From: Clostridia bacterium
GTDB taxonomy: Bacteria > Bacillota > Clostridia > Christensenellales > Aristaeellaceae
Reading direction: 5' to 3'
NCBI GenBank assembly: GCA_017470945.1
Contig: JAFUXH010000100.1
Span: forward strand, 1,084 to 65,083
DNA: 64,000 nt
How positions within the stretch are numbered: the stretch's first letter is position 1; every line of letters starts with the position of its first letter. Both the position numbers and the translations under genes were made by a program. This document shows positions 12,714-62,757 of the stretch, one piece after another. The notes under the pieces were generated by a model that worked only from the letters and a program-made list of their open reading frames with translations, had not been told where the DNA came from and made no database searches.

Positions 12714-13958
12714 TTACTCCTCCTGAAAGGAAAAATGATTCATATCCCGGGCGGGTTCGTCCAGGATGGTCTGCAAGTAATAAGTCGTAAAATTGCGTGG
12801 CAGGTATGTTTGCCACAGGGCGATATCCCGCTCCCCATCGAAGGGCTTCCGGGTCCCGCTGAAATACTGCACGTTCAGTTGGGTCACCAGGTCGATCATG
12901 CGCTGCAGATCCTCAGCGGGGATCACATCGCTGGTAAAGGTGGATTTTTGCCGGGTGGTCCGTTCGAAAAAGTCGGCGGCATAGGCGGGGAAATTCAATA
13001 GGTCGGGGTTGGTTTCCCCATTTTCCAGGGCCCAGCCGGCCACGTCCACGGGCTTGGTGTCGTAGGAAAGCGCTTCCTGTCCCTGCAGGCGCAAAACGCC
13101 GTAGGGGCAGGGGGCCACCGCCATGGATTCGGTGGCGATTTCCACGATGCCCTCCGCCTGGGCGATGTGCTGAATGTGCATGTGGCCGCTCAGGTTCAGC
13201 CGAACCCCATACTGCCGGTACAGCGCCAGCACCTTTTCATAATTGGCGATGGCGAAGCCGGTCACGAACAGGGGGTTGTGGGGCATCACGTTTTGATGGC
13301 TGACGCCGATGACGGTGATCTGATCCTGCTGGGCCTGGCGCAGCTTTTCTTCCAGCCAGCGCAGGGTATTCCCCGTCACCACGCCGGGGGCGCTGTTGCC
13401 GTTCACATCCAGCATCAGGGCCCACACGTCGGGGAATAATTCCGCCACGTAGGATAGGGAGTGCGAATCCCTGTCCAGGGCGGAGGCGTAGCCAAAATCG
13501 GCGTAGAGGGCCGCGAAATCCGCGTTGGGCGTGCCGGCGATGGCCACCGGCCCGTCGGGGGTGAATTGGAAGGCGCTGCTTTCGGTGTCGTGGTTGCCCG
13601 GCAGGGAAAGCACCTTGATGCCGGCGTTCACCAGGGGCCGCAGGATTTCAGTCAGCTCCCGGTGGCTCGCCGGCGCGCCGTTCAGCGTCAGATCGCCGCT
13701 TAAAATCACCGCGTCGGGCTGAAGGGAAAGCATGTCCCGCACGAAGGCCCGCGCCAGCTGGGGCGTATAGTGGGTGATTTTGCCGTCGGCCCCTTCGATG
13801 ATGCGCATGAATCGGGGGCCGTAATCGGTCAGGGTGGGGGACAGGTAATGCAGGTCGGTGGCCAGCACGATCGTCCGGTCCGATGGGCGTTCCCCCAGCG
13901 CGGCGCCGCAGCCGCCCCACAGCAGCAGGCACAGCAGCGCGATGCATGTTTTCCGCAT
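12714..13958 (-). CDS. secreted/lipid-anchored metallophosphoesterase
   Basis: Signal-like MRKTCIALLCLLLWGGC behind GGAGG. Motifs ATDLHY, SGDLT, GNHD, SGHMH. Confidence 0.85.
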   Translation of the reverse strand: MRKTCIALLCLLLWGGCGAALGERPSDRTIVLATDLHYLSPTLTDYGPRFMRIIEGADGKITHYTPQLARAFVRDMLSLQPDAVILSGDLTLNGAPASHRELTEILRPLVNAGIKVLSLPGNHDTESSAFQFTPDGPVAIAGTPNADFAALYADFGYASALDRDSHSLSYVAELFPDVWALMLDVNGNSAPGVVTGNTLRWLEEKLRQAQQDQITVIGVSHQNVMPHNPLFVTGFAIANYEKVLALYRQYGVRLNLSGHMHIQHIAQAEGIVEIATESMAVAPCPYGVLRLQGQEALSYDTKPVDVAGWALENGETNPDLLNFPAYAADFFERTTRQKSTFTSDVIPAEDLQRMIDLVTQLNVQYFSGTRKPFDGERDIALWQTYLPRNFTTYYLQTILDEPARDMNHFSFQEE

Positions 13959-14091
13959 GGTTCCGCCTCCTTGCACCAGCATTATATACCCGCCGTGGGC
14001 TGAACGCAAGAAAGCGGGCAAGAATTCTTCCTACTTTCATGACCAGGCGTCGGCAGAAATTGTCAAAAACACCCAAAATACAATCAAACTA

Positions 14092-14120
14092 TTGACTTGA
14101 TGGGGAAATCATGGTATCAT
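14092..14120 (+). promoter_or_regulatory. sigma-A-type promoter (TTGACT, 17-nt spacer, TG-extended TATCAT)
   Basis: Consensus-like -35 and extended -10 with 17-nt spacing, upstream of the leader ORF. Confidence 0.55.
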
Positions 14121-14150
14121 GCAATCGATTTTGATGAAGGAGGACGCACT

Positions 14151-14240
14151 ATGTCGCTGCACGGCAATTACAATATGGTTTGCATGTGTATGCGCGGCTG
14201 CTGGATGCAGCCTTGTTTACGGTGCGTCTGCCGGGCCTAA
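14151..14240 (+). CDS. 29-codon Cys/Met-rich leader peptide (MSLHGNYNMVCMCMRGCWMQPCLRCVCRA)
   Basis: AAGGAGGA lies 6-7 nt upstream of the ATG. Tandem TAA TAA stops. 6 Cys and 5 Met out of 29 residues. Followed by a terminator. Not in the track (under 60 aa). Confidence 0.45.
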   Translation: MSLHGNYNMVCMCMRGCWMQPCLRCVCRA

Positions 14241-14269
14241 TAACAGGGCCCATCCGCCGAAGATCATCG

Positions 14270-14295
14270 GGGCATCCGCACGGGTGCCCTTTTTT
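14270..14295 (+). terminator. intrinsic terminator / attenuator in the operon leader
   Basis: GGGCATCC-GCAC-GGGTGCCC (8 bp including one G-U pair) followed by T6. Located between the leader ORF and the amidohydrolase start. Confidence 0.6.
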
Positions 14296-14337
14296 GATTA
14301 CCGGCGCTTTTTACGGCAAAAAAGGGGGAAACCGCCG

Positions 14338-15456
14338 TTGACCGAGCAGCAATTGATCGCCTTTTTCCAGGACCTGCACCGTCACCCCGAATTGGGGAAT
14401 GAGGAGGTGCGCACCACTAAAAAGGTGCGCGAGGCGCTGACGGAGGCCGGCATCGAGATCCTGGACCCTGGCACGGCTACGGGGCTCATCGCCGTGATCC
14501 GGGGCGGCCCCGGCCGGGTGATCGGCCTCAGGGCGGATATGGACGCCCTGCCGGTGCAGGAGGAAACGGGCCTGGCCTACGAATCCTGCGTGCCGGGCAA
14601 AATGCACGCCTGCGGCCACGATTTCCACACCGCCTGCATGCTGGGGGCGGCGCTGGCGATCAAGGAGCGGGAAAATGAGCTGTCCGGCACGGTGAAGATC
14701 GTGTTCCAGCCGGCGGAGGAAATTTCCAACGGCGGCTATCAGATGGCCCATTCCGGCCTGCTGAACGACGTGCAGGAATTTTACGCAGGCCACACCTATC
14801 CCGCTTTTCCGGCGGGCACTCTGGGCATCAAGGAGGGCCCGGTGATGGCCGCGCCGGACGCCTTCACCATCCGCATCCGCGGCCGGGGGGCCCACGCGGG
14901 CAACCCCCACCTGGGGGTCGATCCCATCCCCGCGGCGGCGGCCCTGGTGCTGTCGGCCCAAAGCATTATTTCCCGCACGAAAAACGCCTTTGAGCCCGCG
15001 GTGCTGTCCATCACCCACCTGCAGGCGGGCAACACCTGGAACGTGGTGCCGGAGGAGGCGCTGCTGGAGGGCACGGTGCGCACCCTGCATGAGGATTTGC
15101 GCGGCCAGATCCACGCCCGGCTGACCGCTATGGCCGACGCCGTGGCCCAGGCCCACGGCTGCACGGCGGAAACGGAATGGCAGATCGGCCCGCCGCCCGT
15201 GATCAACGACGCCGCCCTGTGCCAGGCCGCCCGGCAGGTGGCGCTGTCGATGGGCTTTCAGGTGGACCGTCAGGCCGACACCATGGGGGGCGAGGATTTC
15301 AGCGAGTACCTGAATCTGGCCCCCGGGGTGTTCATCCGGGTGGGCACCGGCGGGGGGATCCCCAACCACCACCCCCAATTCACCGTCGACCCCGCCGCGC
15401 TGGCCCCCGCCGCCCGCTTCTTTGCTGAGCTGGCCCTGAACAGGGCAAGATCATAA
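14338..15456 (+). CDS. M20D-family amidohydrolase (aminoacylase / hippurate-hydrolase-like)
   Basis: Motifs HRHPELGNEE, LRADMDALP, MHACGHD, FQPAEE, GGEDF. Start set to in-frame TTG 14338 behind GGGGGA. The track start at 14119 would read through the terminator. Confidence 0.85.
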   Translation: MTEQQLIAFFQDLHRHPELGNEEVRTTKKVREALTEAGIEILDPGTATGLIAVIRGGPGRVIGLRADMDALPVQEETGLAYESCVPGKMHACGHDFHTACMLGAALAIKERENELSGTVKIVFQPAEEISNGGYQMAHSGLLNDVQEFYAGHTYPAFPAGTLGIKEGPVMAAPDAFTIRIRGRGAHAGNPHLGVDPIPAAAALVLSAQSIISRTKNAFEPAVLSITHLQAGNTWNVVPEEALLEGTVRTLHEDLRGQIHARLTAMADAVAQAHGCTAETEWQIGPPPVINDAALCQAARQVALSMGFQVDRQADTMGGEDFSEYLNLAPGVFIRVGTGGGIPNHHPQFTVDPAALAPAARFFAELALNRARS

Positions 15457-15479
15457 ATTATTTTTGAAGGAGAATGACC

Positions 15480-17060
15480 ATGAAAAAGCTGCTTTCCCTG
15501 GTTCTGGCTTTCGCCCTGGCGCTGAGCATGTTCGCCTTTGCCTCCGCCGAGGAGGAAAAATCGGTGAACATCGGCGTCACCAGCACCATCGCTTCCCTGA
15601 ACCCCCTGGCGATGGACGCGACGGAGATCGTGAAGTACGCAACGTCTCTGGTGTTCCAATCCCTGGTGGAGGCCGACAGCAAGCTGAATTTTGTGCCGGT
15701 GATCGCCGAATCCATCACCACCGAGGATAATATCCACTTCACCATCAAGGTGAAGGAGGACGCCGTGTGGAGCGACGGCACCCCCATCACCGCCGAGGAC
15801 GTGGAATTCACCCTGGTGGTGGCCGCCGATCCCCAGTGCGCCAACATCAGCCTGGCCATGTATTCCGTGGTGGGCGTCAGCGATGACGGCGTGATCGAGC
15901 CCAACGCCGAAGCCATCGAAGGTATCAAGGTGGTGGATAATAAGACCCTGACGGTGGAAACCAAGTATCCCACCGCCCTGTCCACCTTCCAGAACAATTT
16001 CGGCCGCTACGCCCTGATCCTGCCCAAGCACGTTTTGAAGGATTTGCCCCGGGACGGCCTGCTGACCAACGAATGGTTCAACAATCCCGACGTCATTTCC
16101 GGCCCCTATTTCATCCATGATTTTGATCTGCAGCACTATGTGCACTATGTGGCCAATGAAAATTACTTCCTGGGCGCGCCCAAGATCAAATATCTGAACA
16201 TCAACGTGGTGGCCCCCAGCCAGATGCTGGCCGGATTGCAGAGCGGCGAGATCGACCTGGTGCAGCAGACCATGGGCGCTATCCCCGTGGAGGATTATGC
16301 CGCCATCCGCGCCCTGACCAACGTGACCGCCGTGGACAGCACCCCCATCACCAATGAATTGATCTTCGTCAACGTGGCCAAGGTGACGGATGTGCGCATC
16401 CGCCAGGCCCTGCTGTACGGCATGGACCGCGCCGCTATGCTGGAAGCGCTGCTGGGCGACAGCGGCGCGCTGGTGGACGGCTTCCTGGTGCCCGCCTCCC
16501 CCTATTTCAGCGAGGAATTGGGCGTGACCGCCTATGATCGGGACAAGGCCGCCCAGCTGATCGCCGAAGCCAAGGCCGACGGCGCCAATACCGATTTGAC
16601 CTGGTACGTCAGCGCCGAGGAAAGCGTGTGGGGCAACGCGGTGCAGTATTTCGCCGCCATGTTTGAAGAAATCGGCCTGAATATCACCATCCGCACGGTC
16701 GATCTGGCCAACCTGATGACCGTGGTCAGCGACGGTGAGCACGACATCCTGAGCGTGGAATACACCCTGATGCCCGCCGATCCGTACACCGATATCGCCT
16801 GGCTCATCGGCGGCCAGAGCCTGTGGACCGGCTACACCAGCCCCGCCACCGACGAAGCCCTGGCCCTGAGCCAGAGCCTGACCGACGAAAAGGAAATCAC
16901 CGCGCAGTACCTGATCGTGAATCAGGCCATGCAGCAGGATGCCCCCGTCATTTCCGGCTGGGTGATCGCCAAGCTGGGCGTGGCGAGCAACCGCCTGGTC
17001 AACGCCCATCCCGACGTATTCGGCACCTTCATCAACGTGCAGGATTGGGATCTGCAATAA
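15480..17060 (+). CDS. ABC transporter substrate-binding protein, family 5 (peptide/nickel, OppA/DppA-like)
   Basis: Signal peptide MKKLLSLVLAFALALSMFAFASA. About 525 aa SBP_bac_5-like. GAAGGAG lies 7 nt upstream. Confidence 0.88.
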   Translation: MKKLLSLVLAFALALSMFAFASAEEEKSVNIGVTSTIASLNPLAMDATEIVKYATSLVFQSLVEADSKLNFVPVIAESITTEDNIHFTIKVKEDAVWSDGTPITAEDVEFTLVVAADPQCANISLAMYSVVGVSDDGVIEPNAEAIEGIKVVDNKTLTVETKYPTALSTFQNNFGRYALILPKHVLKDLPRDGLLTNEWFNNPDVISGPYFIHDFDLQHYVHYVANENYFLGAPKIKYLNINVVAPSQMLAGLQSGEIDLVQQTMGAIPVEDYAAIRALTNVTAVDSTPITNELIFVNVAKVTDVRIRQALLYGMDRAAMLEALLGDSGALVDGFLVPASPYFSEELGVTAYDRDKAAQLIAEAKADGANTDLTWYVSAEESVWGNAVQYFAAMFEEIGLNITIRTVDLANLMTVVSDGEHDILSVEYTLMPADPYTDIAWLIGGQSLWTGYTSPATDEALALSQSLTDEKEITAQYLIVNQAMQQDAPVISGWVIAKLGVASNRLVNAHPDVFGTFINVQDWDLQ

Positions 17061-17135: not shown

Positions 17136-18119
17136 ATGCAAGAACCCCTGCTGTCCATCCGGGATTTGAATATCGCCTTCCGCCAGGGGAAGGGCCTGTC
17201 TCCCGCCGCGTCGGGGGTATCCTTTTCCGTGCGTCCGGGGGAAATCCTGTGCGTGGTGGGGGAAAGCGGCAGCGGCAAAAGCATCACCGCCCTGTCGGTG
17301 CTGGGGCTGCTGAGCCGGCAGGGAAAGGTCACCGGCGGGGAGATCCTGTTTGAGGGCAAAAACTTGCTGGCCCTGGGCGAACAGGAAATGGATCAGATCC
17401 GGGGCGCCGGCATCGCCATGATCTTTCAGGATATCATGTACAGCCTGAACCCGGTGTTCACCATTGGCAGCCAGATGGTGGAGGGCATGCGCCGGCACCT
17501 GAACCTGAGCAAGGAGGACGCCCGGCGGGAGGCCGTCGCCCTGCTGGAACGCACCGGAATCCGGGACGCCGGGCAGGTGATGAAGAAATACCCGCACATG
17601 CTGTCCGGCGGCATGCGGCAGCGGGTGATGATCGCCATGGCGCTGTCCTGCCGGCCCAAATTGCTGATCGCCGACGAGCCCACCACCGCCCTGGATGTGA
17701 CCATCCAATACCAGATCATGGAATTGCTGCGGTCCCTGCGGGATGAAACGGGCATGTCCATCCTGCTGATCACCCACGATATCGGGGTGGTGGCCGAAAT
17801 GGCCGACCGGGTGGTGGTGATGTACGCCGGCCAGTGCGTGGAGGAAGCGCTCCTGGCCGATTTGCTGAGCCGCCCCGCCCACGCCTATACCCGGGCGCTG
17901 ATGCAGGCCGTGCCCGGGCTGCACGACGACCGCAGCCACACCCTGTATTCCATCCCCGGCTACGTGCCCCAGCAGTACGGCGAAATGACCGGCTGCCGCT
18001 TCGCCCCCCGCTGTCCCCACGGGGCGGATTGCCCTTACCGGGACAACGAGGAGATGCGGGAAATCGCCCCCGGGCATTTCTCCCGCTGCCTGTATGAAGG
18101 AGGGGAGAAGGATGCCTGA
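17136..18119 (+). CDS. ABC transporter ATP-binding protein (OppD/DppD-like)
   Basis: Walker A GESGSGKS, signature LSGGMRQR, Walker B LLIADEPTTALD. Cys-rich Opp C-terminal extension. Confidence 0.9.
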   Translation: MQEPLLSIRDLNIAFRQGKGLSPAASGVSFSVRPGEILCVVGESGSGKSITALSVLGLLSRQGKVTGGEILFEGKNLLALGEQEMDQIRGAGIAMIFQDIMYSLNPVFTIGSQMVEGMRRHLNLSKEDARREAVALLERTGIRDAGQVMKKYPHMLSGGMRQRVMIAMALSCRPKLLIADEPTTALDVTIQYQIMELLRSLRDETGMSILLITHDIGVVAEMADRVVVMYAGQCVEEALLADLLSRPAHAYTRALMQAVPGLHDDRSHTLYSIPGYVPQQYGEMTGCRFAPRCPHGADCPYRDNEEMREIAPGHFSRCLYEGGEKDA

Positions 18120-19092
18120 TCGGGCCGCCCCCGTGCTGGAATGCCGGTGCGTCAGCAAGGAGTATAAGATCAGCGGGGAAAACAGCCTGTTTTCCCGCAC
18201 CTTTCCCGCGGTGGAGGATGTGACCCTGGCCGTTCAGACGGGCGAAACCTTCGGCATCGTGGGGGAATCGGGCTGCGGGAAATCCACCGTGGCGCGGCTG
18301 CTCATGTGCCTGGAAAAGCCCACGGCGGGGGAAATTTATTTTCAGGGTCGGCGCGTCGACAGCCTGCCGGAGCGGGAACGCCGCCTGATCCGCCCCCGGT
18401 TCCAAATGGTGTTTCAGGACAGCGGGTCCTCCCTGAACCCCCGCAAGCGGGTGCAGGATATCCTGCGGGAGCCCATGCTGCATCACAGGATCGGCGATCC
18501 CGCCTGGGTCAACCGGCGGGTGGAGGAATTGCTTTCGATGGTGGGGCTGCCGGTGGAAATGAAGGATCGCTATCCCCACGAATTTTCCGGCGGCCAGCGC
18601 CAGCGCATCTGCATCGCCCGGGCGCTGTCGCTGAACCCCGACGTGATCGTGCTGGATGAGCCGGTATCGGCGCTGGATGTGTCGGTGCAGGCGCAGATCC
18701 TGAATCTGCTGCGGGAATTGCAGGAGCGTATGGGCCTGACCTATGTGTTCATCGGCCACGGCCTGGGGGCGGTGCACTACATCAGCCACCGCATCGCCGT
18801 GATGTATATGGGCAGGGTGGTGGAGATCGGCACGTCGGATGAATTGTTCGACCGCCCCGCCCACCCCTACACGAAGGCCCTGCTGGACGCCGCCCCCGTG
18901 GCCCGGGCCGACGCAAGATTCCGGCCGCGCACGGCCCTGAAGGGCGAAATTGACGAGCATCCCCCCCAGGGGGCGTGCCCCCTGTATCACCGCTGCCCCC
19001 TGGCCGGGAAGGATTGCCTGGCTTTTTCCGGGGAGATGGGGGAAATCGCCCCCGGGCATTTCACCGTATGCGCCAGGGCATGGGAGGAATAA
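18112..19092 (+). CDS. ABC transporter ATP-binding protein (OppF/DppF-like)
   Basis: [29 protein letters not shown]. The start overlaps the upstream stop. Confidence 0.9.
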
Positions 19093-19096
19093 AGGC

Positions 19097-20041
19097 ATGT
19101 GGAAGTATGTGTTGAAAAAGCTGCTGCTGGCCATTCCCGTGCTGCTGGGCATCACCATCATCGATTACGCCATCATGAGCCTGGCGGGCAGCCCCCTGGA
19201 TATGATGGTGGGCCCCCGGGTCAGCGAAGCGGCGTTGGCTTCCCGCGCCGCCCAATGGGGCCTGGATCAGCCCATCTATGTGCAGTATTGGAACTGGCTG
19301 GTGGAGGTGTTTCACGGCAATCTGGGCTATTCCTATAAAAGCTACCAGCCGGTGGCTGATCTGATCGGCAGCCACGTGGGCCCCACCCTGCTGCTGATGG
19401 GGGTTTCGATGGTGCTGGGCCTGCTCATCGCCGTGCCGGCGGGCATTTACAGCGCCGTGCACCGCTATCAGAAGCGGGATTACGCGGTGGTGTCGGCCTC
19501 GTTCCTGTTTTCCAGCATCCCGGGCTTTTTCCTGTCCCTGATCCTGATTTACTTTTTCACGGTGCGGCTGGGCTGGCTGCCCTCCTCCGGCATGTATACC
19601 CCCGGCACCGGGGGCGATTTTGGCGATGTGGCCCGGCATATGATCATGCCGGCCCTGGTGCTGGCCATCGGCGTGGCGGGGGGCAACATCCGCTACATCC
19701 GATCCGCCGTGCTGGAAATATTGGAAATGGATTACCTGCGCACCGCCAAGGCCAAGGGCATGGGGCGCAGGATCGTCATCCGCAAGCACGCCCTGCGCAA
19801 CGCCCTGCTGCCCATCGTGACGGTGATCGGCATGCAGATCCCCGGCCTGTTCGGGGGCGCGGTGATCGTGGAGCAGCTGTTCTCCTGGCCCGGCCTGGGG
19901 CTGGTGACCATGAGCGCCGTCACCGGGCGGGATTACCCGGTGATCATGGGGGTGTGCCTCCTGTCGGCGGTGGTGGTGCTGGCCGCCAATCTGCTCACCG
20001 ATATCCTGTACGCCCTGGTGGACCCCACCATCAAATACTGA
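19097..20041 (+). CDS. ABC transporter permease (OppB/DppB-like)
   Basis: MWKYVLKKLLLAIPVLLGITII start. EAA-like YLRTAKAKG motif. Confidence 0.9.
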   Translation: MWKYVLKKLLLAIPVLLGITIIDYAIMSLAGSPLDMMVGPRVSEAALASRAAQWGLDQPIYVQYWNWLVEVFHGNLGYSYKSYQPVADLIGSHVGPTLLLMGVSMVLGLLIAVPAGIYSAVHRYQKRDYAVVSASFLFSSIPGFFLSLILIYFFTVRLGWLPSSGMYTPGTGGDFGDVARHMIMPALVLAIGVAGGNIRYIRSAVLEILEMDYLRTAKAKGMGRRIVIRKHALRNALLPIVTVIGMQIPGLFGGAVIVEQLFSWPGLGLVTMSAVTGRDYPVIMGVCLLSAVVVLAANLLTDILYALVDPTIKY

Positions 20042-20053
20042 GGAGGCGCCGCG

Positions 20054-20902
20054 GTGAAGAAGCATACGAAATTCCGCACGATCGCCCGGCGTTTTGTGAA
20101 GCACAAAATGGCGGTGATCTGCCTGATCCTCCTGGCGGCGCTGATCCTTCTGGCGGCGCTGGCCCCGGTGATCGCCCCCTATTCGCCCACCAAGCCCACC
20201 GGCGCGTTTTCACAGCCCCCCTCCGCCGATCATATCCTGGGAACGGATAAGATCGGCCGGGATATGTACAGCCGCATCCTGTATGCCATGCAGGTCAGCT
20301 TGGAGGTGGGCTTCCTGGCCACGCTGATTTCCACCGCCATCGGGGTGATCCTGGGCCTGGTCAGCGGCTATTTCGGCGGGGCGGTGGATAAGGCCATCAT
20401 GAGCTTTACCGACATGGTGATGTCCTTCCCCTATATCCTGCTGGTGTTGGTGGCGGCCGCCATTTTCCAGCCCGGCATGTGGAGCATCATCCTGATCCTG
20501 GGCTTCGTGGATTGGCCGGGGGTGACGCGGCTGGTGCGGGGCAACGTGCTGAGCCTGCGGGAAACCAATTTCGTCAAAAGCGACGTGACGGCGGGCATGC
20601 CCCGGCGCTACATCCTGTTTTCCGAGATCCTGCCCAACACCATCGCCCCGGTGCTGGTGTACGCTACCAGCGTGTTCGCCATCTCCATCCTGGATGAGGC
20701 GGCCCTCTCCTTCCTGGGGCTGGGCGTGCAGCCGCCCACCCCGTCCCTGGGCAATCTGCTCAACGGGGCCGAATCCCTGTCGGTGCTCACGGGCAAGCCC
20801 TGGCTGTGGGTGCCCGCCGGGCTGGTGATCATCCTGCTGGTGGTGTGCATCAATTTTGTGGGCGACGCCCTGCGGGACGCTTTTGACCCGCGCAATGAAT
20901 GA
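20054..20902 (+). CDS. ABC transporter permease (OppC/DppC-like)
   Basis: GTG start. LGTDKIGRDMYSR motif. 6 transmembrane segments. Confidence 0.9.
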   Translation: MKKHTKFRTIARRFVKHKMAVICLILLAALILLAALAPVIAPYSPTKPTGAFSQPPSADHILGTDKIGRDMYSRILYAMQVSLEVGFLATLISTAIGVILGLVSGYFGGAVDKAIMSFTDMVMSFPYILLVLVAAAIFQPGMWSIILILGFVDWPGVTRLVRGNVLSLRETNFVKSDVTAGMPRRYILFSEILPNTIAPVLVYATSVFAISILDEAALSFLGLGVQPPTPSLGNLLNGAESLSVLTGKPWLWVPAGLVIILLVVCINFVGDALRDAFDPRNE

Positions 20903-20942: not shown

Positions 20943-21554
20943 TTGAAGAACGCTTTGATCCATCAATCCTCGGAATACGACTGCGGGCCCACCTGCATGG
21001 TCAACGCCATCCGGTATCTGTTTGAGCGGGAGGAGATCCAGCCTGGAGTGCTCAAGCACATTTGGGTCATGGGCAACGATACTTACTGCGATAAGGGCTG
21101 CCTGGGCTGCCACGGCACTTCCCGGGCGTCCATGCGCTATATGGCCGATTGGCTGCGGGAATATGGCCGGGGCTGCTGCTTCCCGGTGTACGCCGAATTT
21201 CTGTGCGATGGGGACGCGGTGGTGGCCCCCGGCACCAAAGCCTGGGATTTCCTTCAGCAGGGCGGCTGCGTGATCATGCGCTGCTACGCCGATAAGATCC
21301 CCCATTACGTGCTGCTGACCGCTGTGCTGCCGGGCGACGAGGTGGGCTTGTTCGATCCCTACGAGGAGGACCCGGAATTTGAGGGCGAGGGCCGCCGGGT
21401 GGTGGCGGGCTATCCGAAGCAGATGAACCGGGCCGTCCGGTACGACCTGCTGAATTTGGAGGATATGTCGGATTACGCCATGGGGAAATATGATGTGCGG
21501 GAGCTGGTGCTGATCCGCCGGACGGACCGGGATAAGAATCAGAAAGCCGGGTGA
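20943..21554 (+). CDS. cytoplasmic C39-like (papain-fold) cysteine peptidase domain protein
   Basis: HQSSEYDCGPTCMVNAI (Q-x5-C as in peptidase C39), downstream IPHYVLL and FDPY as His/Asp candidates. No signal peptide. Cys-rich insert CDKGCLGCHG...GCC. TTG start. Confidence 0.55.
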   Translation: MKNALIHQSSEYDCGPTCMVNAIRYLFEREEIQPGVLKHIWVMGNDTYCDKGCLGCHGTSRASMRYMADWLREYGRGCCFPVYAEFLCDGDAVVAPGTKAWDFLQQGGCVIMRCYADKIPHYVLLTAVLPGDEVGLFDPYEEDPEFEGEGRRVVAGYPKQMNRAVRYDLLNLEDMSDYAMGKYDVRELVLIRRTDRDKNQKAG

Positions 21555-21677
21555 CAGCCAGGCGCGTTCCCGGCCACGGCGTTGCTGTTTTCCGCGTTCA
21601 ACGGATGATCCTTTTTTCGATCAGGCGGAACAGCGGCGCGTGGAAAGCGGCATCATCAGAAAGCGAGACGTATACCA

Positions 21678-22457
21678 ATGAATGCAGAGATCATCGGGGG
21701 GATCCTGATCCCCTTTATCGGCACCAGCTTGGGCGCGGCCATGGTGTTCGTGCTGAAAAAGAGCATTTCGGGCAGCCTGCAAAAGATGTTGACCGGCTTT
21801 GCCGCCGGAGTGATGGTGGCGGCCTCCTTCTGGAGCCTGCTGGAGCCCGCCCTGGACAGCAGCGCGCACATGGGCGCCCTTTCCTTCCTGCCCGCCGCCG
21901 TGGGCTTCCTGGTGGGCGTGGGCTTCTTGCTGCTGCTGGATGAAATCACACCGCATATGCACTTTGACAATCAGGATGAAGGCCCGAAATCCGGCCTGAA
22001 GCGCACCACCAAGCTGATCCTGGCCGTGACGCTGCACAACATCCCCGAGGGCATGGCCGTGGGCGTGGTGTACGCGGGCTTCCTGTCCGGCAACGCCGGC
22101 ATCACCTCCGCGGGCGCGTTGGCCCTGGCCCTGGGCATCGCCATCCAGAATTTCCCGGAAGGGGCCATCGTGTCCATGCCGCTGCGGGCGGAGGGCATGA
22201 ACAAGGGCAAGACCTTCCTGTTCGGCGTCCTGTCCGGCGTGGTGGAGCCCATCGCCGCCGTGGTCACCATCCTGGCGGCCGGGACGGTGGTGCCCATCAT
22301 GCCCTATCTGCTGGCCTTCGCCGCCGGCGCTATGATGTATGTGGTGGTGGAGGAATTGATCCCTGAAATGTCCGAGGGGAAGCACTCCAACTGGGGCACC
22401 ATCGCCTTTTCCCTGGGCTTTGTGCTGATGATGGTGCTGGATGTGGCGCTGGGCTGA
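21678..22457 (+). CDS. ZIP-family divalent metal transporter (ZupT-like)
   Basis: LHNIPEGMAVGV and IQNFPEGA motifs. 8 predicted transmembrane segments. 259 aa. Confidence 0.88.
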   Translation: MNAEIIGGILIPFIGTSLGAAMVFVLKKSISGSLQKMLTGFAAGVMVAASFWSLLEPALDSSAHMGALSFLPAAVGFLVGVGFLLLLDEITPHMHFDNQDEGPKSGLKRTTKLILAVTLHNIPEGMAVGVVYAGFLSGNAGITSAGALALALGIAIQNFPEGAIVSMPLRAEGMNKGKTFLFGVLSGVVEPIAAVVTILAAGTVVPIMPYLLAFAAGAMMYVVVEELIPEMSEGKHSNWGTIAFSLGFVLMMVLDVALG

Positions 22458-53960: not shown

Positions 53961-54002
53961 AAAAACAAGCCCGTTTTGTGAGCGCACAAAACGGGCCGTT
54001 TT
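53961..54002 (-). terminator. intrinsic terminator following the orphan gap 3' fragment (probable native gap terminator)
   Basis: 12-bp stem gcccgttttgtg/cacaaaacgggc. The A5 on the plus strand gives a T-run on the minus strand. Confidence 0.7.
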
Positions 54003-54010
54003 CCATAGGA

Positions 54011-54118
54011 TTACTTCAGCTCCGCGAAGTACTTGATGGTGCGAACCATCTGAGAGGTGTAGGAATTTTCGTTGTCGTACCAGCTCACGACCTGCACCTG
54101 GGCGGTGTCGTCGTCGAT
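54011..54118 (-). pseudogene. gap: displaced 3'-terminal fragment of gap (last 35 codons plus stop)
   Basis: Translates to IDDDTAQVQVVSWYDNENSYTSQMVRTIKYFAELK*. No upstream continuation; the sequence diverges at 54119. Confidence 0.85.
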
Positions 54119-54346
54119 AAACCGTTGCTGCGCAACGGTTTTAGGGGTGCCGCTGCCCGTCTTTGCGTAGGCTTGTTTACTTGTCAAATCACGATATTGC
54201 CTATCGTACCTTCGGCCAACTGGCCTATTGGACTACGTTGGAAGTGTATCATACCATTTTCGGCCCGTCAAGCGAAAAAGAAAGATCGTAAACGAAAGGC
54301 CCGTAAAAGTTGAAAAGGAAAGAGCGTTGTTCCGATGACAAGCAAA

Positions 54347-54381
54347 ATCCCCGCCGTCCGATGAAGGGCGGCGGGGATCAT
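54347..54381. repeat. 35-nt GC hairpin, copy 1 (atccccgccgtccgatgaagggcggcggggatcat)
   Basis: 33/35 identical to 55088-55122. On the minus strand it is followed by a T-run and can serve as the terminator of the toxin-antitoxin pair. Confidence 0.7.
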
Positions 54382-54392
54382 GTTTAGCGGGT

Positions 54393-54728
54393 TCATTCCG
54401 AAAGCAGCTTCATAATCTGCTTTTCAAAAGCGGGCAAATCCTGTGTGCAGGTGCTGTAAACGTCCTCTTTGCGCAGCGTTTGATATTTGTGCGCGGTCAC
54501 GTCCCGCATACCGGCGATGGCCCGCCAGGGGATTTCTTTGTGTGCGTCCTTCAAATCCTGTGTGATATTCTTCACTAACTCGCCAATATTGATCAGCGTC
54601 ATGCTGACCGCCCGGGCCGTGCGTTCATCCGTCAAAAACTGTTCCAGAGAAACGCCGTCCAAGAGTTCCCGAGCCAAAGCGATTTCCGACAGGATTTTGT
54701 TGCAGACTTGCGTGTCTCTTCCATTCAT
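54393..54728 (-). CDS. hepT: HepT-like HEPN (DUF86) toxin
   Basis: 111 aa. R-x4-H motif in AGMRDVTAHKY. 4-nt overlap with the upstream nucleotidyltransferase gene. Confidence 0.85.
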   Translation of the reverse strand: MNGRDTQVCNKILSEIALARELLDGVSLEQFLTDERTARAVSMTLINIGELVKNITQDLKDAHKEIPWRAIAGMRDVTAHKYQTLRKEDVYSTCTQDLPAFEKQIMKLLSE

Positions 54729-55006
54729 AGCACCCGCACGACCTTTCCAACCGTGATCATGCTGCCCTCGGGCAAGGGAGCGTGAATCACATCCACAGGC
54801 AGGCCCAGCGCATCTTCCAGATCGTATTTCAAGGCGTTCAGCTTCACCAGCGAAACGGCGGGAGAATCAAATTCCACCAGCAAATCCAAATCGCTTTCGC
54901 TGGTAGCCCGGCCATCGGCAAACGATCCGAAAATGCTGACCTTGCGCAGCGCATAGGCATTTTTCATTCCGTACAACGTATCGCGGATGATGTCAACCGT
55001 AGGCAT
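54725..55006 (-). CDS. mntA: MntA-like minimal nucleotidyltransferase antitoxin
   Basis: 93 aa from MPTVDIIRD. GSFADGRATSESDLDLLVEF motif. Confidence 0.85.
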   Translation of the reverse strand: MPTVDIIRDTLYGMKNAYALRKVSIFGSFADGRATSESDLDLLVEFDSPAVSLVKLNALKYDLEDALGLPVDVIHAPLPEGSMITVGKVVRVL

Positions 55007-55087
55007 TTTTCTTCCCCCTTTCCCGTTTTTATTATAGCCGATTCCTGCTGAAAATTCAACGCATATTTTGTTTTGAACGATGATACG

Positions 55088-55122
55088 ATCCCCGCCGCCC
55101 GATGAAGGGCAGCGGGGATCAT
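55088..55122. repeat. 35-nt GC hairpin, copy 2
   Basis: atccccgccgcccgatgaagggcagcggggatcat, 12 nt below the stop of the 98-aa membrane protein gene. No T-run on the minus strand. Confidence 0.7.
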
Positions 55123-55133
55123 TTATTGTGTGA

Positions 55134-55430
55134 TTATGCGTTCTTCTTTTCTTGTTCGCGCTCCACATATGCTTTTGCGGCCAGATTGGCAGCAATGACG
55201 CTATTTTCAGCAGCTTCGCCAATGGCATATAATACAAGTGAACCAAGCCATGAGAGCAAAGGACCGATGATTGCAATTAAAATCCCCGAAACAATATATA
55301 TCTCGCCGTCACGATACATATTAGCTCCACTCACAATCATCGCAATACCGCCAATGATAGAAGCGATAATCCCCAGCCAGCAGAGCACCTTTGCCAAAGT
55401 CTTACATTTTCCACCAATATTATCAAACAT
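55134..55430 (-). CDS. small membrane protein (2-3 transmembrane segments), unknown function
   Basis: 98 aa. Hydrophobic core plus a charged C-terminal tail. The RBS AAGGAGGG lies inside the end of the upstream gene. Confidence 0.6.
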   Translation of the reverse strand: MFDNIGGKCKTLAKVLCWLGIIASIIGGIAMIVSGANMYRDGEIYIVSGILIAIIGPLLSWLGSLVLYAIGEAAENSVIAANLAAKAYVEREQEKKNA

Positions 55431-56069
55431 TTACTTACCCTCCTTCATTTTCCTCTTGTACTCATCCAAATACGAAAAGTCGCTGCTGTTTTCTTGTTTC
55501 AATTTTTTCTCTCGATTTGCAGGTGCAAACCATATCGCACATGCGATATAGAGAAGAATTGTGCCAATAGTATTTATGACATAATAAGAGCCTACACTAG
55601 AGCCTACCCTGGAGATGGTGATGATGGATAAAAGAGAAAAAATTACCGTGTATATAGCGTAGATAATTGCCACAACAGACCATATCACACTATTATGAGT
55701 CTTATTCAAGATAATAAAGAGAAATGGCAATATCGATGATATAATCGATATTAAACTAAATACAAGACTAAATACATCAATAACATAATTCAAACGTGAA
55801 ATAATTGATCCAGCAAAAGGAATAATTGCCAAGCAGCAAGCAATCACTTTCTTGCCAGCCTTATCAAACAAATACGACAACAACCACCAAAGCCCTGTTA
55901 AACCGACGATGTTGCCAAAGAGCATTTGAACGGTTATTGATATTTGTGCCCTGCTGTATTCAATTATCGACCATACAAAACAAGCCAATTCAAAAATAAT
56001 AGTCGCTATAAATAAAACCAGCACGGTTTTATTCTTTTTTTGAAGTGCTCCTTGTGTTTTCATTTCCAT
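55431..56069 (-). CDS. polytopic membrane protein (~6 transmembrane segments), unknown function, very AT-rich
   Basis: 212 aa from MEMKTQG behind GGGGTGA. Hand-counted 60-nt lines give 22-45% G+C. Confidence 0.6.
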   Translation of the reverse strand: MEMKTQGALQKKNKTVLVLFIATIIFELACFVWSIIEYSRAQISITVQMLFGNIVGLTGLWWLLSYLFDKAGKKVIACCLAIIPFAGSIISRLNYVIDVFSLVFSLISIISSILPFLFIILNKTHNSVIWSVVAIIYAIYTVIFSLLSIITISRVGSSVGSYYVINTIGTILLYIACAIWFAPANREKKLKQENSSDFSYLDEYKRKMKEGK

Positions 56070-56127
56070 GCTATCACCCCTTCGCAGATTTGAGGCGGTC
56101 ACGGTTTCCCGCAACCGCCGCTTTTCG

Positions 56128-56313
56128 TCATACTTGCCGCACAACCTCTTTGAACGTATGCTTTACAATGGGCGGCGTGCCTTGCAGCTTGATGTACCGG
56201 GCGACGGTCTGCGCGGAACGCCCCACGATACGGGCCACAGCGGCGTAAGTGCCGTATTGATTGTAAAGCTGATTCATCCAAATGATTTCTTCGGCTGTCA
56301 CACGCCTTGCCAT
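56128..56313 (-). CDS. small helix-turn-helix protein
   Basis: 61 aa. YAAVARIVGRSAQTVARYI looks like an HTH. Confidence 0.55.
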   Translation of the reverse strand: MARRVTAEEIIWMNQLYNQYGTYAAVARIVGRSAQTVARYIKLQGTPPIVKHTFKEVVRQV

Positions 56314-56315
56314 GG

Positions 56316-56609
56316 TTATTTGCCCTGGGGTTGGCCGTTCTGGCCGTTATTCTGAGGCTGATTGTTATTTGTCGGCGGCACGGGCGGCACCTTTGCCGCG
56401 TTTCGATTGGGCTTCACGCCGGTTTTCAGCTGCGTGTCAGAATGGGCCATAGCATAATCCCAGCATTCTTTCAGATAGCCGCTAAAGGTTTTCTCTTTAG
56501 CATTTTCACCGCCGCATTCCTTAATCATGCGGTTGATCTCGGCCAGCTTGTCGGTGTAGTTGTAAGGAACGGTGATGGTTTTCTTGTCGGTGTCCAGAAC
56601 GATCTTCAT
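56316..56609 (-). CDS. hypothetical protein with Asn/Gln/Pro-rich tail
   Basis: 97 aa from MKIVLDTDKK behind GGGAGA. 2-nt gap to the next gene. Confidence 0.5.
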   Translation of the reverse strand: MKIVLDTDKKTITVPYNYTDKLAEINRMIKECGGENAKEKTFSGYLKECWDYAMAHSDTQLKTGVKPNRNAAKVPPVPPTNNNQPQNNGQNGQPQGK

Positions 56610-56635
56610 GTGTTTTTCTCCCTTCATTTTGTCGG

Positions 56636-56920
56636 TCAGTAGCTTTCGCTTTCCACACCCAGGCACAAATCCTGCGCATCGAACAGGAGGGAAATGCTGT
56701 ACCCGTCCTCTTGCCAGGTGCGCAGCGTGCGCCCGTCTGTCCGCTGGATGATCTTGTGTGCCGCACCCATTTCATCCACGATCTCCCGATAGGTTTTTCC
56801 ACGAAATACGGCGGCTTTTTTCGCCCGTGCTTGCAGGGACGGCTTGCGGCGCTTCATCCACTCCGCAAACAGAATCCCCGCCAGAAACGCGGCGGCAATC
56901 CAGCCCAAGTAAATCAGCAT
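56636..56920 (-). CDS. hypothetical N-terminally anchored small protein
   Basis: 94 aa. N-terminal transmembrane segment LIYLGWIAAAFLAGILFAEW. Confidence 0.5.
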   Translation of the reverse strand: MLIYLGWIAAAFLAGILFAEWMKRRKPSLQARAKKAAVFRGKTYREIVDEMGAAHKIIQRTDGRTLRTWQEDGYSISLLFDAQDLCLGVESESY

Positions 56921-57081
56921 TACACCTCCCCGCTTTCGATTGACATTCCTTGCGCCCGTGCGCTTTGCCTGGAAATATCGTAAGGGAGATCAGGCCAAAA
57001 GTCACGTCGCAAAACGCGACAATCGCGTCAAGAAATGCGACATTGCATGTTTTTTCCTGTTTTTTCGTGAAAAGGACATAT

Positions 57082-57102
57082 AAAAAAGCCCCTGGCGGGG
57101 CT
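57082..57102 (-). terminator. intrinsic terminator of the XRE-TM gene
   Basis: Stem agcccc/ggggct. The A6 on the plus strand gives a T-run on the minus strand. Confidence 0.6.
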
Positions 57103-57116
57103 TGAAAGCGAAGGAG

Positions 57117-57857
57117 TTATTCCTGCGGCTTTTCCTGGGATAATGTGACCGTCGTCGTTTCTTTTATTTCATGTCCGTTTGCATCCGTGCCTTGCAGCTG
57201 CAATTTCACGCTGGTAAACAGGGGATAGCTTGCGCCCCAGTTGATATAAACGGGCGCAGGATCGGCGCTGGTAATGGTATCGCCATACATGCAGCCGCGT
57301 AGGAATGCATAATCCAAATCCATGTTGCCTGCTACGCTATCATCCTTATAGTACAGCATCGTTGCCTTTTCCGGCTTAAAGGGAATGTCGCTTGTGTTCG
57401 TAATGACAAACGAAAACTCCCAGCCCAGGCCCTCATCCTCAAAATCAGGATCGGCAATCATGGGCGCGGGATCATACAATGCGGTTAAAGTGACCTCGGC
57501 TGTTTTGCTCATTTTCGCGTTATGGGAAACAAGCAAAACAACAGCTACGGCGATAATCGCCAGCAGGGCGGCGCACAGGCCGATGATCTTCTTTTTCTGC
57601 GGCTTGCGTGACGGTGCGGTTTCCTGGGTGGAAGGGTCGGGATCGGCGGGCGTTTCCTGGGGATCGGCTTTGCCGATCAGAAAATCAACATGCAGCACCT
57701 GGCCCAAGAGGCGCATCGTATCAAGATCGGGCTCCGTGCGGCCATGCTCCCAATTTGAGATCGTGTTCCTCGCAACGTGAACGGCGGCGGATAATTCTTC
57801 CTGGGTCATGTTTGCGGCCTTCCGGGCGGCGGATAGTTGTTCGGCAAATGTCGCCAT
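57117..57857 (-). CDS. membrane-tethered XRE-family HTH regulator with extracytoplasmic domain
   Basis: 246 aa from MATFAEQL behind AAGGAGGA. HTH MTQEELSAAVHVARNTISNWEHG, Pro-rich linker, transmembrane segment IIGLCAALLAIIAVAVVLLV, ~125-aa C-terminal domain. Confidence 0.75.
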   Translation of the reverse strand: MATFAEQLSAARKAANMTQEELSAAVHVARNTISNWEHGRTEPDLDTMRLLGQVLHVDFLIGKADPQETPADPDPSTQETAPSRKPQKKKIIGLCAALLAIIAVAVVLLVSHNAKMSKTAEVTLTALYDPAPMIADPDFEDEGLGWEFSFVITNTSDIPFKPEKATMLYYKDDSVAGNMDLDYAFLRGCMYGDTITSADPAPVYINWGASYPLFTSVKLQLQGTDANGHEIKETTTVTLSQEKPQE

Positions 57858-57960
57858 GCTGTGATCTTCCTCCTTGTCGTAGAAAACAGGAATATTATAC
57901 TGGAAACAGGGCGTTTTTTCAAGAAAAAATGTCGAAAAAGCCAGCTTTTTCAAGGGTTTC

Positions 57961-58030
57961 CCGCATTTGCGTGCATTTGCATGTAAATGCGCTGCATTGT
58001 CGTGTAATTGCATGTATTTGCGCTGCATTT
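57961..58030. promoter_or_regulatory. iteron/operator-like direct repeats
   Basis: 22-mers ttgcatgtaaatgcgctgcatt (57977-57998) and ttgcatgtatttgcgctgcatt (58008-58029), 31 nt apart. Additional gcatttgc copies at 57963, 57973 and ~58171. Confidence 0.55.
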
Positions 58031-58318
58031 ACATAGCAATAGCAAGCAATTTCAGAGGAAAAAGCGGGGAATTGAGCAAAAACCAGCTCGTTCTTTTCCT
58101 TATCGTCTGTAATCGTCATGTAAATTTAAGAATTTTCCAGCGATTGCATGTTGTTGCACGGCAATCATGCGCATTTGCGGCGCGGCGCAATGCGTATTCA
58201 TTTGAAAAACATAAAAATAAATGATATGATAAATACAGAAGATGAGGGAAAAGGAAAATCCCATACTTCATAAAAAAATGAATCGCGCTGTACGGCGCGT
58301 AGAAAGGTTTATTTGCTT

Positions 58319-59056
58319 ATGCCTGAAACAGTTTCCAATCAAAAGGTGATCCACGTTCACAAGCCCACCTACACGGGCAATTTCTTGCAGATCGGCAATG
58401 AAGAATGGCAGGCGGTCAGCACCGATAAGAAGAATCTGGGCCGCACGGCGCTGCAACTGTATTTGTATCTGGCCGCCAACGCAAACGGCTATCAATTCGC
58501 CCTGTCACAGCAGGCGGTAGAAAACGCCGTGGGGATCGGACGCACCAGCTACGACAAGTATCTGAAACGGTTAGAGGATATGGGCTACATCGTGTGGCGG
58601 CATGGCAATGTGTATGATTTTTACACAACGCCCCGCCCGGCGAATGAACGCACCCAGCATTACAAGGATAAAGCCGCTGATGATGAAGCATTGAACTTTG
58701 ACGATGATTGTTTCGCGGAAAAACAGGATGTTCCCGCCGCGCGAAATGAACTGCCGCCCCGCGAACATGATTTCCCGCAAAGCGGCAAAACCCTGCCGCC
58801 CTGCAATAGAGAAATAGATAATAGATACGGGATAGATAACGGAGAAATAGATCATACAGATAGCGGAACGCTGCGCGTCCCGCCGCCCGCCGCTGACGCG
58901 GCAGGCGCATCAAGAGGAAAAGTTGTTGAAATCCGCATCCCCAACCCTTTGCTGCCAGAACGGCGTAAGCCGATTGAAAAGCCAAAGCCCTTTGCGTTCA
59001 TGGATGATGATTTCATCAACAGAACTGATCCAGCAACCGGGGAATACGTTTTCTGA
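58319..59056 (+). CDS. winged-helix replication-initiator/replisome-organizer-like protein
   Basis: About 245 aa. The N-terminal ~100 aa (ALQLYLYLAANANGYQFALSQQAVENAVGIGRTSYDKYLKRLEDMGYIV) is wHTH-like. The C-terminal half is low complexity. Confidence 0.5.
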   Translation: MPETVSNQKVIHVHKPTYTGNFLQIGNEEWQAVSTDKKNLGRTALQLYLYLAANANGYQFALSQQAVENAVGIGRTSYDKYLKRLEDMGYIVWRHGNVYDFYTTPRPANERTQHYKDKAADDEALNFDDDCFAEKQDVPAARNELPPREHDFPQSGKTLPPCNREIDNRYGIDNGEIDHTDSGTLRVPPPAADAAGASRGKVVEIRIPNPLLPERRKPIEKPKPFAFMDDDFINRTDPATGEYVF

Positions 59057-59115
59057 CGGCGCAAGCCGTCTTGCGAACGGCGCACAGCTTCTTTTCTCTT
59101 GCTCCCGCGCTGTTT

Positions 59116-59157
59116 CTTTGCTCTTGCTATGGTAGCGCCGTGAGAGCAAGAGCAAAG
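59116..59157. other. 13-bp perfect-stem hairpin (candidate oriT/ssi or terminator)
   Basis: ctttgctcttgct - 16-nt loop - agcaagagcaaag. An extra ctcttgct direct copy lies just upstream. No T-run follows. Confidence 0.5.
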
Positions 59158-59241
59158 GAAAATCACTTGTGCCGGACATTCGCCCACAAACAAGAAAAAC
59201 GGGGCGTTTCATGCCAAATCCAGCACAAAACGCCCCGATCC

Positions 59242-60345: not shown

Positions 60346-60446
60346 TTATACCACCACAAGACTGATTTTTCAATACGCTTTGCGGAAATTCGTATCGCAA
60401 GCAATAAAATAATACCGTGAAACAAGAAAGAGTTTACGTAAAACTA

Positions 60447-62751: not shown

Positions 62752-62757
62752 AAATGT

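Follow-up and report, generated by a model that had tools for sequence, protein, structure and literature searches.

A cysteine-codon-rich leader upstream of an amidohydrolase–Opp operon in uncultured rumen Clostridia: a candidate ribosome-mediated attenuator

The classical leader-peptide attenuators, namely those of the trp, his, leu, thr, pheA and ilv operons of Escherichia coli and Salmonella, combine a short open reading frame (ORF) that is led by a Shine–Dalgarno (SD) sequence and rich in the sensed codons with three overlapping pairings, a hairpin inside the ORF as a possible pause site, and an intrinsic terminator just before the first structural gene. The same combination was found in a leader of about 170 nt in a 64,000-nt stretch of contig JAFUXH010000100.1 from an uncultured member of the Clostridia (the window, to which all positions below refer), ahead of an operon encoding an M20 amidohydrolase and an Opp-type transporter. 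We consider it moderately probable that this leader is a ribosome-mediated (leader-peptide) transcription attenuator that reads charged tRNA-Cys and probably also tRNA-Met. It would differ from the classical attenuators in reading Cys (perhaps Met), which none of those operons does, and in that the sensor codons are interspersed (C-M-C-M-x-G-C) rather than arranged in a straight run. Whereas segment 1 of the trp, his and leu leaders lies inside the ORF, here the SD region itself would play this part. Furthermore, the operon appears to serve uptake and salvage rather than biosynthesis, the host belongs to the Clostridia and the leader has no similarity to an Rfam leader family. In the phylum of the Clostridia, sulfur amino acid genes are normally assigned to control by T-boxes, S-adenosylmethionine (SAM) riboswitches or CymR, and the yxe operon of Bacillus subtilis, compared with the present operon below, is under the repressor CymR rather than a leader peptide.

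Upstream ORFs rich in Cys codons have been described in other phyla. In mycobacteria, polycysteine leaderless short ORFs have been shown to act as Cys-responsive translational attenuators (bioRxiv 10.1101/834739), and for Actinobacteria, leader peptides rich in Cys have been predicted in front of cys and cbs genes, with no terminators found (PMC1262725). The present leader would share with these systems a Cys-rich upstream short ORF, ribosome pausing and a link to cysteine-metabolism operons. However, the mycobacterial ORFs are leaderless and carry consecutive Cys runs, whereas the ORF studied here has an SD sequence, a 5′ untranslated region (UTR) and spaced Cys residues (CxCx3Cx4Cx2CxC); moreover, the mycobacterial output is the unmasked ribosome-binding site of the next gene, without a terminator, in contrast to the intrinsic terminator found here. 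A terminator is part of uORFC-8-2, a predicted Cys-codon upstream ORF in front of cysS in Rhodobacterales (PMC8632094). As in the present leader, conserved Cys codons in the upstream ORF are followed by a terminator stem and U run, and both cases are predictions from sequence. In uORFC-8-2, two tandem Cys codons at positions 14–15 precede the gene for cysteinyl-tRNA synthetase of alphaproteobacteria, whereas the present leader has six spaced Cys codons in addition to Met codons, another fold, other regulated genes and a host of another phylum. The principle is therefore common to the known Cys systems, whereas sequence, architecture, regulated genes and phylum are not. Literature searches turned up no comparable device described for Clostridia or other Firmicutes. 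If the attenuator reading is true, the leader would be a classical amino acid-sensing leader-peptide terminator switch in Clostridia, and ribosome-read cysteine sensing would reach beyond Actinobacteria (demonstrated) and Rhodobacterales (predicted).

Layout and conservation of the leader ORF

The promoter (14092–14120, plus strand) consists of TTGACT at 14092–14097, a 17-nt spacer and a TG-extended TATCAT (TGgTATCAT) ending at 14120. It is the sole 10-of-12 promoter match with an extended −10 element on the plus strand between 13000 and 22000, and its spacer (ATGGGGAAATCATG) is itself kept across the orthologous loci. Judging from the promoter position, transcription would start near 14127; the distance from the end of the −10 element (14120) to the ATG at 14151 leaves a 5′ UTR of about 24 nt with a strong SD sequence (AAGGAGGA, 14137–14144, 7 nt upstream of the ATG). 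The leader ORF (14151–14240, plus strand) has 29 codons, encodes the peptide MSLHGNYNMVCMCMRGCWMQPCLRCVCRA and ends in tandem TAA codons, the second at 14241–14243. It contains six Cys and five Met codons; apart from the start codon, six Cys and four internal Met codons remain among 28. An intrinsic terminator (14269–14295, plus strand) begins 29 nt past the stop codon, with a stem at 14269–14290, a GCAC loop and a T6 run at 14290–14295. A further 42 nt separate the terminator from the first structural gene, which starts with TTG at 14338; this gap ranges from 19 to 50 nt in homologues. No second promoter was matched between the terminator and the first gene, and there is no room for one. A single promoter yields the ~170-nt leader ahead of the operon. 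These elements had all been named in the original prediction and are present at the positions it gave, although the stem is now counted as nine pairs from 14269. The TTG start behind GGGGGA, which it had also proposed, is confirmed by an identical 372-aa database protein (P0001) and by an alignment of 120 orthologues at their N-termini. The layout as a whole (promoter, Cys/Met-rich ORF and terminator before the gene) is conserved in orthologous leaders, and a hairpin followed by a U run was found in all nine orthologous leaders, long and short.

The enrichment in Cys and Met exceeds what chance would give. Of the 1176 pairings of a start with a stop that span 20–45 aa in the window, 11 had at least five Cys codons, and only the leader ORF (plus a start nested in it) was both intergenic and SD-led; the others lay out of frame inside genes and had no SD sequence. 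At least 10 in-frame Cys and Met codons arose in 0.035% of dinucleotide-preserving shuffles of the ORF interior (P = 3.5e-4), and with the codon frequencies of eight genes nearby as background (Cys 1.3%, Met 3.0%), the probability was 1.5e-7. The triplets were also phased: frame 0 held all internal AUG and 6 of 10 UGY triplets, and frame +2 held none. The proposed sensor cluster covers codons 9–17 (14175–14201, plus strand; M V C M C M R G C), with UGY at 14181, 14187 and 14199 and AUG at 14175, 14184 and 14190. TGT, which accounts for only 4 of 37 Cys codons in the eight neighbouring genes, was invariant at leader codon 13 and present at codon 22 in five of six leaders. Neither a second copy of the leader motifs nor another SD-led Cys-rich short ORF was found within the window.

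Orthologues were collected by a protein search with the M20 enzyme, which yielded many matches at 62%–78% identity from rumen metagenomes and metagenome-assembled genomes of Clostridia. Seven long leaders were compared: those of the window (identical to L081), L083/84, L110, L111, L112, L093/94 and L082. Locus L094 belongs to the complete metagenome-assembled genome GCA_017541205.1. The ORF was compared in six of them (window, L083, L110, L111, L112 and L093), the M20 enzymes of the five others being 68%–76% identical to that of the window. The peptides of these five are MTMHGNYNMVCMCMCGCVKQPCLRCVCRA (L083), MILRSERLMICRCTRGCGMQPCSRCVCRA (L110), MTMHFSFRKACMCMRGCEKQPCSWCDCRA (L111), MNTMRNIAMLCFCMCGRETQSCSWCVCRGR (L112) and (V)KKSYDRLLRMCMPGCETQPVSRCDCRA (L093). 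In all six, the SD sequence, an ATG or GTG at one column and the frame were kept; the stop codon (TAA or TGA) stood at the same codon in five and one codon later in L112, and the sole indel within the ORF was of 3 nt. Cys 11, 17 and 22 were kept in five of six leaders and Cys 13, 25 and 27 in all, with variable residues between them, whereas AUG was kept at codon 12 in four, at codon 14 in five and at codon 19 in two. Judged from these sequences, Cys is the well-conserved signal, and Met is enriched and less constant. Codons 2–10 had a mean pairwise nucleotide identity of 38% and no conserved sequence, while their length was held (30 nt in five leaders, 27 nt in one). The pattern that the original prediction had proposed to look for, Cys and Met codons kept while other codons drift, was thus observed for the frame, the stop and the Cys codons against the drift of codons 2–10, and less so for Met.

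Codons 11–30 were 78% identical, above the 71% of the enzyme gene, and from codon 11 onwards the third codon positions were no more variable than the first and second. The comparison clearly points to selection at the RNA level from codon 11. Because third positions are as conserved as the others, the RNA and codon constraints are confounded. Cys 11 and Cys 13 are the positions least explained by helices: the codon between them varies (AUG, AGG or UUC), one synonymous change was found, and the sole, weak helix option was a 3-bp stem (alignment columns 61–63:72–74) beside which RNAalifold places them.

L082 (1434–1628), the closest relative by enzyme (78%), has a different ORF. It has lost the ancestral start and gained a GGAGGG-N6-AUG that lies 11 codons further on in the same frame, giving the peptide MRTRGWEKQSALRGVCRACHQCP. 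The first half of the ORF is replaced, the stop lies 15 nt further downstream and Cys codons occur only in or after the segment called region 3 below, while the strand of the SD region, the hairpins P2, P3 and P4, region 3 itself and the terminator (all described in the next section) are kept. L082 is either a decaying or a rewired form of the putative switch.

Apart from the leader ORF, several features of the promoter and of the gap before the gene were observed. The promoter is kept far beyond its hexamers in all nine orthologous loci with long or short leaders (window 14080–14130; L082–L094 and L110–L112), including the spacer ATGGGgAAwTCATGnTATsATGCA and an upstream A-rich stretch (AAAATACAAT). 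Therefore, a DNA-binding regulator may act at the promoter alongside the putative attenuator; no regulator gene adjoins the locus. The spacer is similar to one part of the CymR box of B. subtilis; the fit fails, and we make no claim of a CymR site. In the window only, the gap between terminator and TTG (14296–14337) contains an extra GC-rich inverted repeat with A/T runs (ACCGGCGCTTTTTACGGCAAAAAAGGGGGAAACCGCCG), which overlaps the M20 ribosome-binding site GGGGGA. A 445-aa ORF from an ATG at 14119, in the −10 region, extends across leader and terminator to 15456 in frame with the M20 gene and was dismissed as an artefact of the high G+C content. False N-terminal extensions translated from the leader are present in several database proteins (e.g., P0012, P0030, P0040, P0042 and P0043).

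Alternative pairings and the proposed switch

The single-sequence fold of the leader had a free energy of −73 kcal/mol (z = −3.15). Comparison of the long leaders yielded three mutually exclusive pairings, between the SD region and the 3′ end of the ORF, between the 3′ end of the ORF and the 5′ arm of the terminator, and within the terminator. The first of these, P1, joins region 1 (14137–14150, plus strand; the SD sequence AAGGAGGA plus spacer), through 14139–14150, to region 3 (14221–14232, plus strand; GGUGCGUCUGCC, codons 24–28). It is part of the minimum free energy (MFE) structure of the single sequence, together with P2, P3 and the terminator, and we propose that region 1 acts as an anti-antiterminator and sequesters the SD sequence. 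The P1 duplex had −12 to −21 kcal/mol in all seven leaders, though the strand on the SD side differs among them; its energy was reached by at most 29 of 300 shuffles in six leaders and by 47 of 300 in L112. Changes within P1 were wobble-compatible, apart from one compensatory A-U to U-A exchange in L111 that is paired with a Val-to-Asp change at position 26 of the peptide.

Region 3 has an alternative partner in region 4 (14271–14281, plus strand; GGCAUCCGCAC), which comprises the 5′ arm and loop of the terminator. In the RNAalifold consensus of the seven long leaders, GUGCG-UC-UGCC (14222–14232) pairs with GGCA-YC-CGCAC (14271–14281) through 5 + 4 bp around a 2 × 2 internal loop, with 98% of cells paired compared with 33%–47% for a slid partner. 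Among about 129 upstream partners of the terminator arm, region 3 was the best or joint best in all seven leaders. The 5′ arm of the terminator is invariant, whereas the 3′ arm drifts. This putative antiterminator encloses two hairpins on the plus strand: P3 (14233–14251; GGGCCU-loop-AGGGCC(C)), which spans the stop codons and in which two pairs have changed on both sides, and P4 (14257–14270; CCGA-N6-UCGG), whose stem is invariant and whose loop varies. A third hairpin, P2 (14196–14212, plus strand; GGCUGC-N5-GCAGCC), lies inside the ORF at codons 16–21, has a variable loop and 95% of cells paired, and is followed by UUGUUUA; P2 with this tail was flagged as terminator-like.

The original prediction had suggested another antiterminator, GGATGC (14203–14208) with GCATCC in the terminator 5′ arm (14272–14277). 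The two segments are present and complementary (−15.9 kcal/mol). However, GGATGC falls within the loop of P2, which differs in each homologue (UGGAU, GUGAA, GGAAU, GAGAA and GAAAC), and this pairing is therefore not the conserved switch. A segment that resembles region 3 (GUGCGUCUGC, 14222–14231) was also observed at codons 14–17 ((A)UGCGCGGCUGC, or GUGCGGCUGC in L083 and L112; 14190–14201 in the window); in L083, L112 and L093 its pairing with the 5′ arm of the terminator is as good as that of region 3, and the segment could be another partner masked by the ribosome or a trace of duplication.

In constrained folds without a ribosome, P1 plus the terminator was favoured by 3–10 kcal/mol in six of seven leaders. 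When everything 5′ of region 3 was masked, the antiterminator was the MFE structure in three leaders and lay within 1.4–8.5 kcal/mol of it in the rest. On the growing transcript, with the 3′ arm of the terminator still to be made, the antiterminator was the structure adopted. When region 3 was masked, the terminator formed. Folding thus gave mutually exclusive terminator, antiterminator and anti-antiterminator structures, of which the original prediction had asked about the first two. Against Rfam 15, the whole 64-kb window had no match at the gathering score, including the T-box and SAM riboswitch models; at E ≤ 10, the only match within 13950–14450 was a chance isrD match on the terminator (E = 3.2). 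The observations that had been named in advance as speaking against an attenuator (an ORF not conserved in orthologues, no fold competing with the terminator, or a known riboswitch or T-box match) were therefore mostly not made, since the ORF is conserved, the folds compete and Rfam has no match. The leaders contain an SD-led ORF with conserved codon enrichment (L082 excepted on enrichment), a terminator without an intervening promoter, an antiterminator and an anti-antiterminator, the features by which an attenuator would be recognised in sequence.

A mechanism consistent with these pairings can be proposed. In an untranslated leader, the SD region would pair with region 3 (P1), the terminator would form and transcription would stop. 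With ample Cys, the ribosome would reach the stop codon at 14238 and cover about 14220–14250, including region 3, so that the terminator would again form. Under a shortage of Cys-tRNA (or Met-tRNA), the ribosome would stall in the C-M-C-M-x-G-C cluster at codons 11–17, with trailing ribosomes occupying the SD sequence. With UGC-17 (14199–14201) in the A site, the ribosome edge would lie at about 14211–14213, that is, some 8–10 nt short of region 3 given the footprint size. Region 3 would thus be left free to pair with the 5′ arm of the terminator the moment this arm is transcribed, and the polymerase would read through into the operon, the products of which would import peptides or conjugates and release cysteine. 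P2 and its U-rich tail (14196–14218) may pause the polymerase until the ribosome arrives, although this is speculation. The switch would be compact and well defined, with about 170 nt, and amenable to study in a heterologous host.

Several points weigh against this mechanism. Translation of the ORF and a response to Cys are predictions from sequence, and the comparison comprises only seven long leaders, with helices that show almost no covariation. In the antiterminator itself, seven of nine pairs are invariant, leaving no covariation, and its energy is unexceptional for a GC-rich sequence, being equalled by 36–124 of 300 shuffles. Given the conservation of third codon positions, Cys codons 17, 25 and 27 could owe their retention solely to RNA pairing. 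In L082, the RNA elements persist without the early Cys cluster, and two related lineages (L085 and L089) keep the promoter and terminator without a Cys ORF or a clear antiterminator. A stall at codons 11–17 could also expose the SD region unless a second ribosome loads, in which case P1 would compete with the antiterminator. Finally, the coupling of transcription and translation is loose in B. subtilis, the former outpacing the latter, and classical attenuation is accordingly more difficult in Firmicutes, though these Clostridia may differ.

Some of the same evidence would suit a terminator/antiterminator switch run by a ligand (i.e., a new riboswitch) or by an RNA-binding protein, with the ORF either incidental or an aid to RNA unfolding. 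The recognised site would then be the junction of regions 3 and 4 with P3 and P4, or the UG-rich segment. Conservation at the nucleotide level from codon 11 without synonymous excess, and an antiterminator state in which several helices with invariant stems meet in a compact junction while their loops vary, are in line with such a switch, as are the elements retained in L082 and the short ORF-less leaders. The Val-to-Asp change at codon 26, compensated in the strand of the SD region, likewise points to selection on RNA rather than on peptide. In contrast, incidental status of the ORF would leave unaccounted for the conservation of its SD sequence, start codon, frame and stop, the new in-frame SD sequence and AUG that arose in L082, the phasing of AUG and UGY triplets to one frame, and the retention of Cys 11 and Cys 13 around a variable codon, with one synonymous change and no well-supported helix. 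In addition, no Rfam family matched, and the short leaders are devoid of P3, P4 and region 3, so the putative aptamer is not carried there. We regard this explanation as unlikely.

The peptide itself could be the sensor. The last ten residues and the stop are its most conserved part, and the C-terminal Q-P-C-x-x-C-x-C-R-A-stop might arrest the ribosome at or near the stop in the presence of cysteine, a thiol or a metal, much as TnaC responds to tryptophan, and the arrest would then alter the decision at the terminator. Arrest peptides of similar size exist, such as TnaC, SecM and ErmCL. However, the same codons are fully explained by the P2, P1 and antiterminator pairings, and arrest at the stop would place the ribosome over region 3 and so promote termination, giving the response an odd sign for a salvage operon. 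Nascent-peptide arrest appears very improbable. A sensor layered on the attenuator, in which the Cys-rich nascent peptide (CxCx3Cx4Cx2CxC-R-A-stop) or the antiterminator junction directly senses a thiol, metal or redox state and which would belong to a new class of arrest-peptide or riboswitch sensors, is also quite improbable. Stalling at scarce Cys-tRNA remains the preferred account of the leader.

Operon, distribution and genomic surroundings

The first gene downstream of the leader encodes an M20D amidohydrolase of 372 aa (14338–15456, plus strand) recognised by Pfam and NCBIfam, the latter assigning it only to the general amidohydrolase subfamily TIGR01891. It is followed on the plus strand by genes for a family-5 solute-binding protein (15474–17060), two Opp-type ATPases (about 17136–19092) and two permeases (about 19100–20902), and orthologous loci have the same gene order. 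The closest solved structure to the enzyme is YxeP of B. subtilis (PDB 1YSJ; E = 4.7e-105, 46% identity over 365 columns), and the next match fell behind it by 45 orders of magnitude. By deacetylation, YxeP releases free cysteine from N-acetylcysteine (PMC9706529). A regulatory logic based on cysteine therefore fits the enzyme. In B. subtilis, the yxe operon combines the acetyltransferase YxeL, YxeK, the transporter YxeMNO and the N-acetylcysteine deacetylase YxeP (PMC9706529). As there, the present operon combines a YxeP-like enzyme with an ABC importer, and a GNAT acetyltransferase is present in relatives with short leaders. In contrast to yxe, the transporter here is of the Opp type with a family-5 binding protein rather than the amino acid type of YxeMNO, YxeK is missing and the enzyme is assigned by its sequence to a general subfamily. 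The solute-binding protein was below every NCBIfam equivalog cut-off, with Opp4A, NikA and GsiB all weak, and an exact-match look-up of this protein returned none. If the leader does sense Cys, the YxeP-like deacylase and the Opp-type importer would form a cysteine-salvage route induced by cysteine shortage, and an otherwise anonymous operon of abundant uncultured rumen bacteria would receive a functional label.

The peptides and the surrounding genes also bear on the idea of a real small-protein gene, whose Cys-rich CxCx3Cx4Cx2CxC product would bind metal, serve redox chemistry or be a modified peptide, and whose terminator would set a fixed ratio of peptide to operon. The fixed Cys spacing in five to six of the six peptides, the strong SD sequence and the likeness of promoter, ORF and terminator to a stand-alone small gene would agree with this. 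Also in its favour, the solute-binding protein is weakly similar to nickel and opine-metal binders, and there is a downstream gene for a ZIP transporter (21678–22457). The ~170-nt terminated RNA could in addition act in trans as a dual-function small RNA. On the other hand, expression of the operon depends on read-through of the terminator, since its genes lack a separate promoter, and the conserved alternative pairing overlaps the terminator arm. The peptide had no NCBIfam match, and a comparison of the in-frame leader translation with 5.8 billion proteins returned only one close copy, the ORF of L083. The swap of Val for Asp at position 26 is tolerated and compensated in the RNA. No maturase or exporter is consistently adjacent, and the genes upstream of the long leaders vary by locus (ThiF/phosphoesterase, LDH, Na/Ca exchanger and QueT). 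With regard to modified peptides in particular, a Cys-rich precursor of the SCIFF type was looked for, and neither a match to a precursor family in NCBIfam nor a conserved neighbouring maturase was found. A small-protein gene is thus a doubtful explanation of the leader, for which a ribosome-mediated attenuator remains the preferred reading.

The leader was traced across related loci. Short leaders of about 100 nt (L085–88 and L089–92) have the same promoter and terminator and no Cys ORF. In these operons (L085 2871–3000, L089 2875–3000; also L086–88 and L090–92), the M20 enzyme is 73%–74% identical to that of the window, and a 2′,5′-RNA-ligase-like gene occurs in addition to the GNAT acetyltransferase. 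Their leaders contain a small hairpin and a strong terminator, with no clear antiterminator. In L085 and L089, an AUG about 4 nt past the −10 element begins an ORF, possibly leaderless, which extends across the terminator and ends with a UAA directly behind the U run. A remnant of region 3 (GCG-xx-UGCC) was considered in L085 and L089; the segment folds into its own small hairpin and yields no antiterminator, and the idea of a remnant is therefore unsupported. Stand-alone M20 genes (L095–97 and L098–100) have no leader, so the leader belongs to the M20–Opp operon rather than to the enzyme family. A scan of species-representative genomes with the M20 enzyme gave, among the matches listed, relatives of at most 51% identity, none with a Cys-rich upstream ORF or the leader motif. 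A scan of metagenome contigs for CTGCCGGGC-N(10–30)-CCGAANNNNATCGGGGC gave nine matches, all of which were chance occurrences inside unrelated GC-rich contigs. As far as seen in these sequences, the element is confined to a narrow clade of uncultured rumen Clostridia, and L082 and the short leaders indicate that it is evolutionarily labile.

Past the last permease gene (20943–22457), two ORFs of 203 and 130 aa had no family match, the first with a sub-threshold C39-like match, and are accompanied by the ZIP gene mentioned above, which is of the ZIP/ZupT type and encodes a zinc transporter. At the far end of the window (54000–64000), the G+C content falls from about 0.61 to 0.45–0.52, and the genes include a tyrosine integrase (62800–63774, minus strand), an ArdC-like anti-restriction/zincin protein (60998–61840), helix-turn-helix regulators and a nucleotidyltransferase. 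This segment is probably an integrated mobile element.

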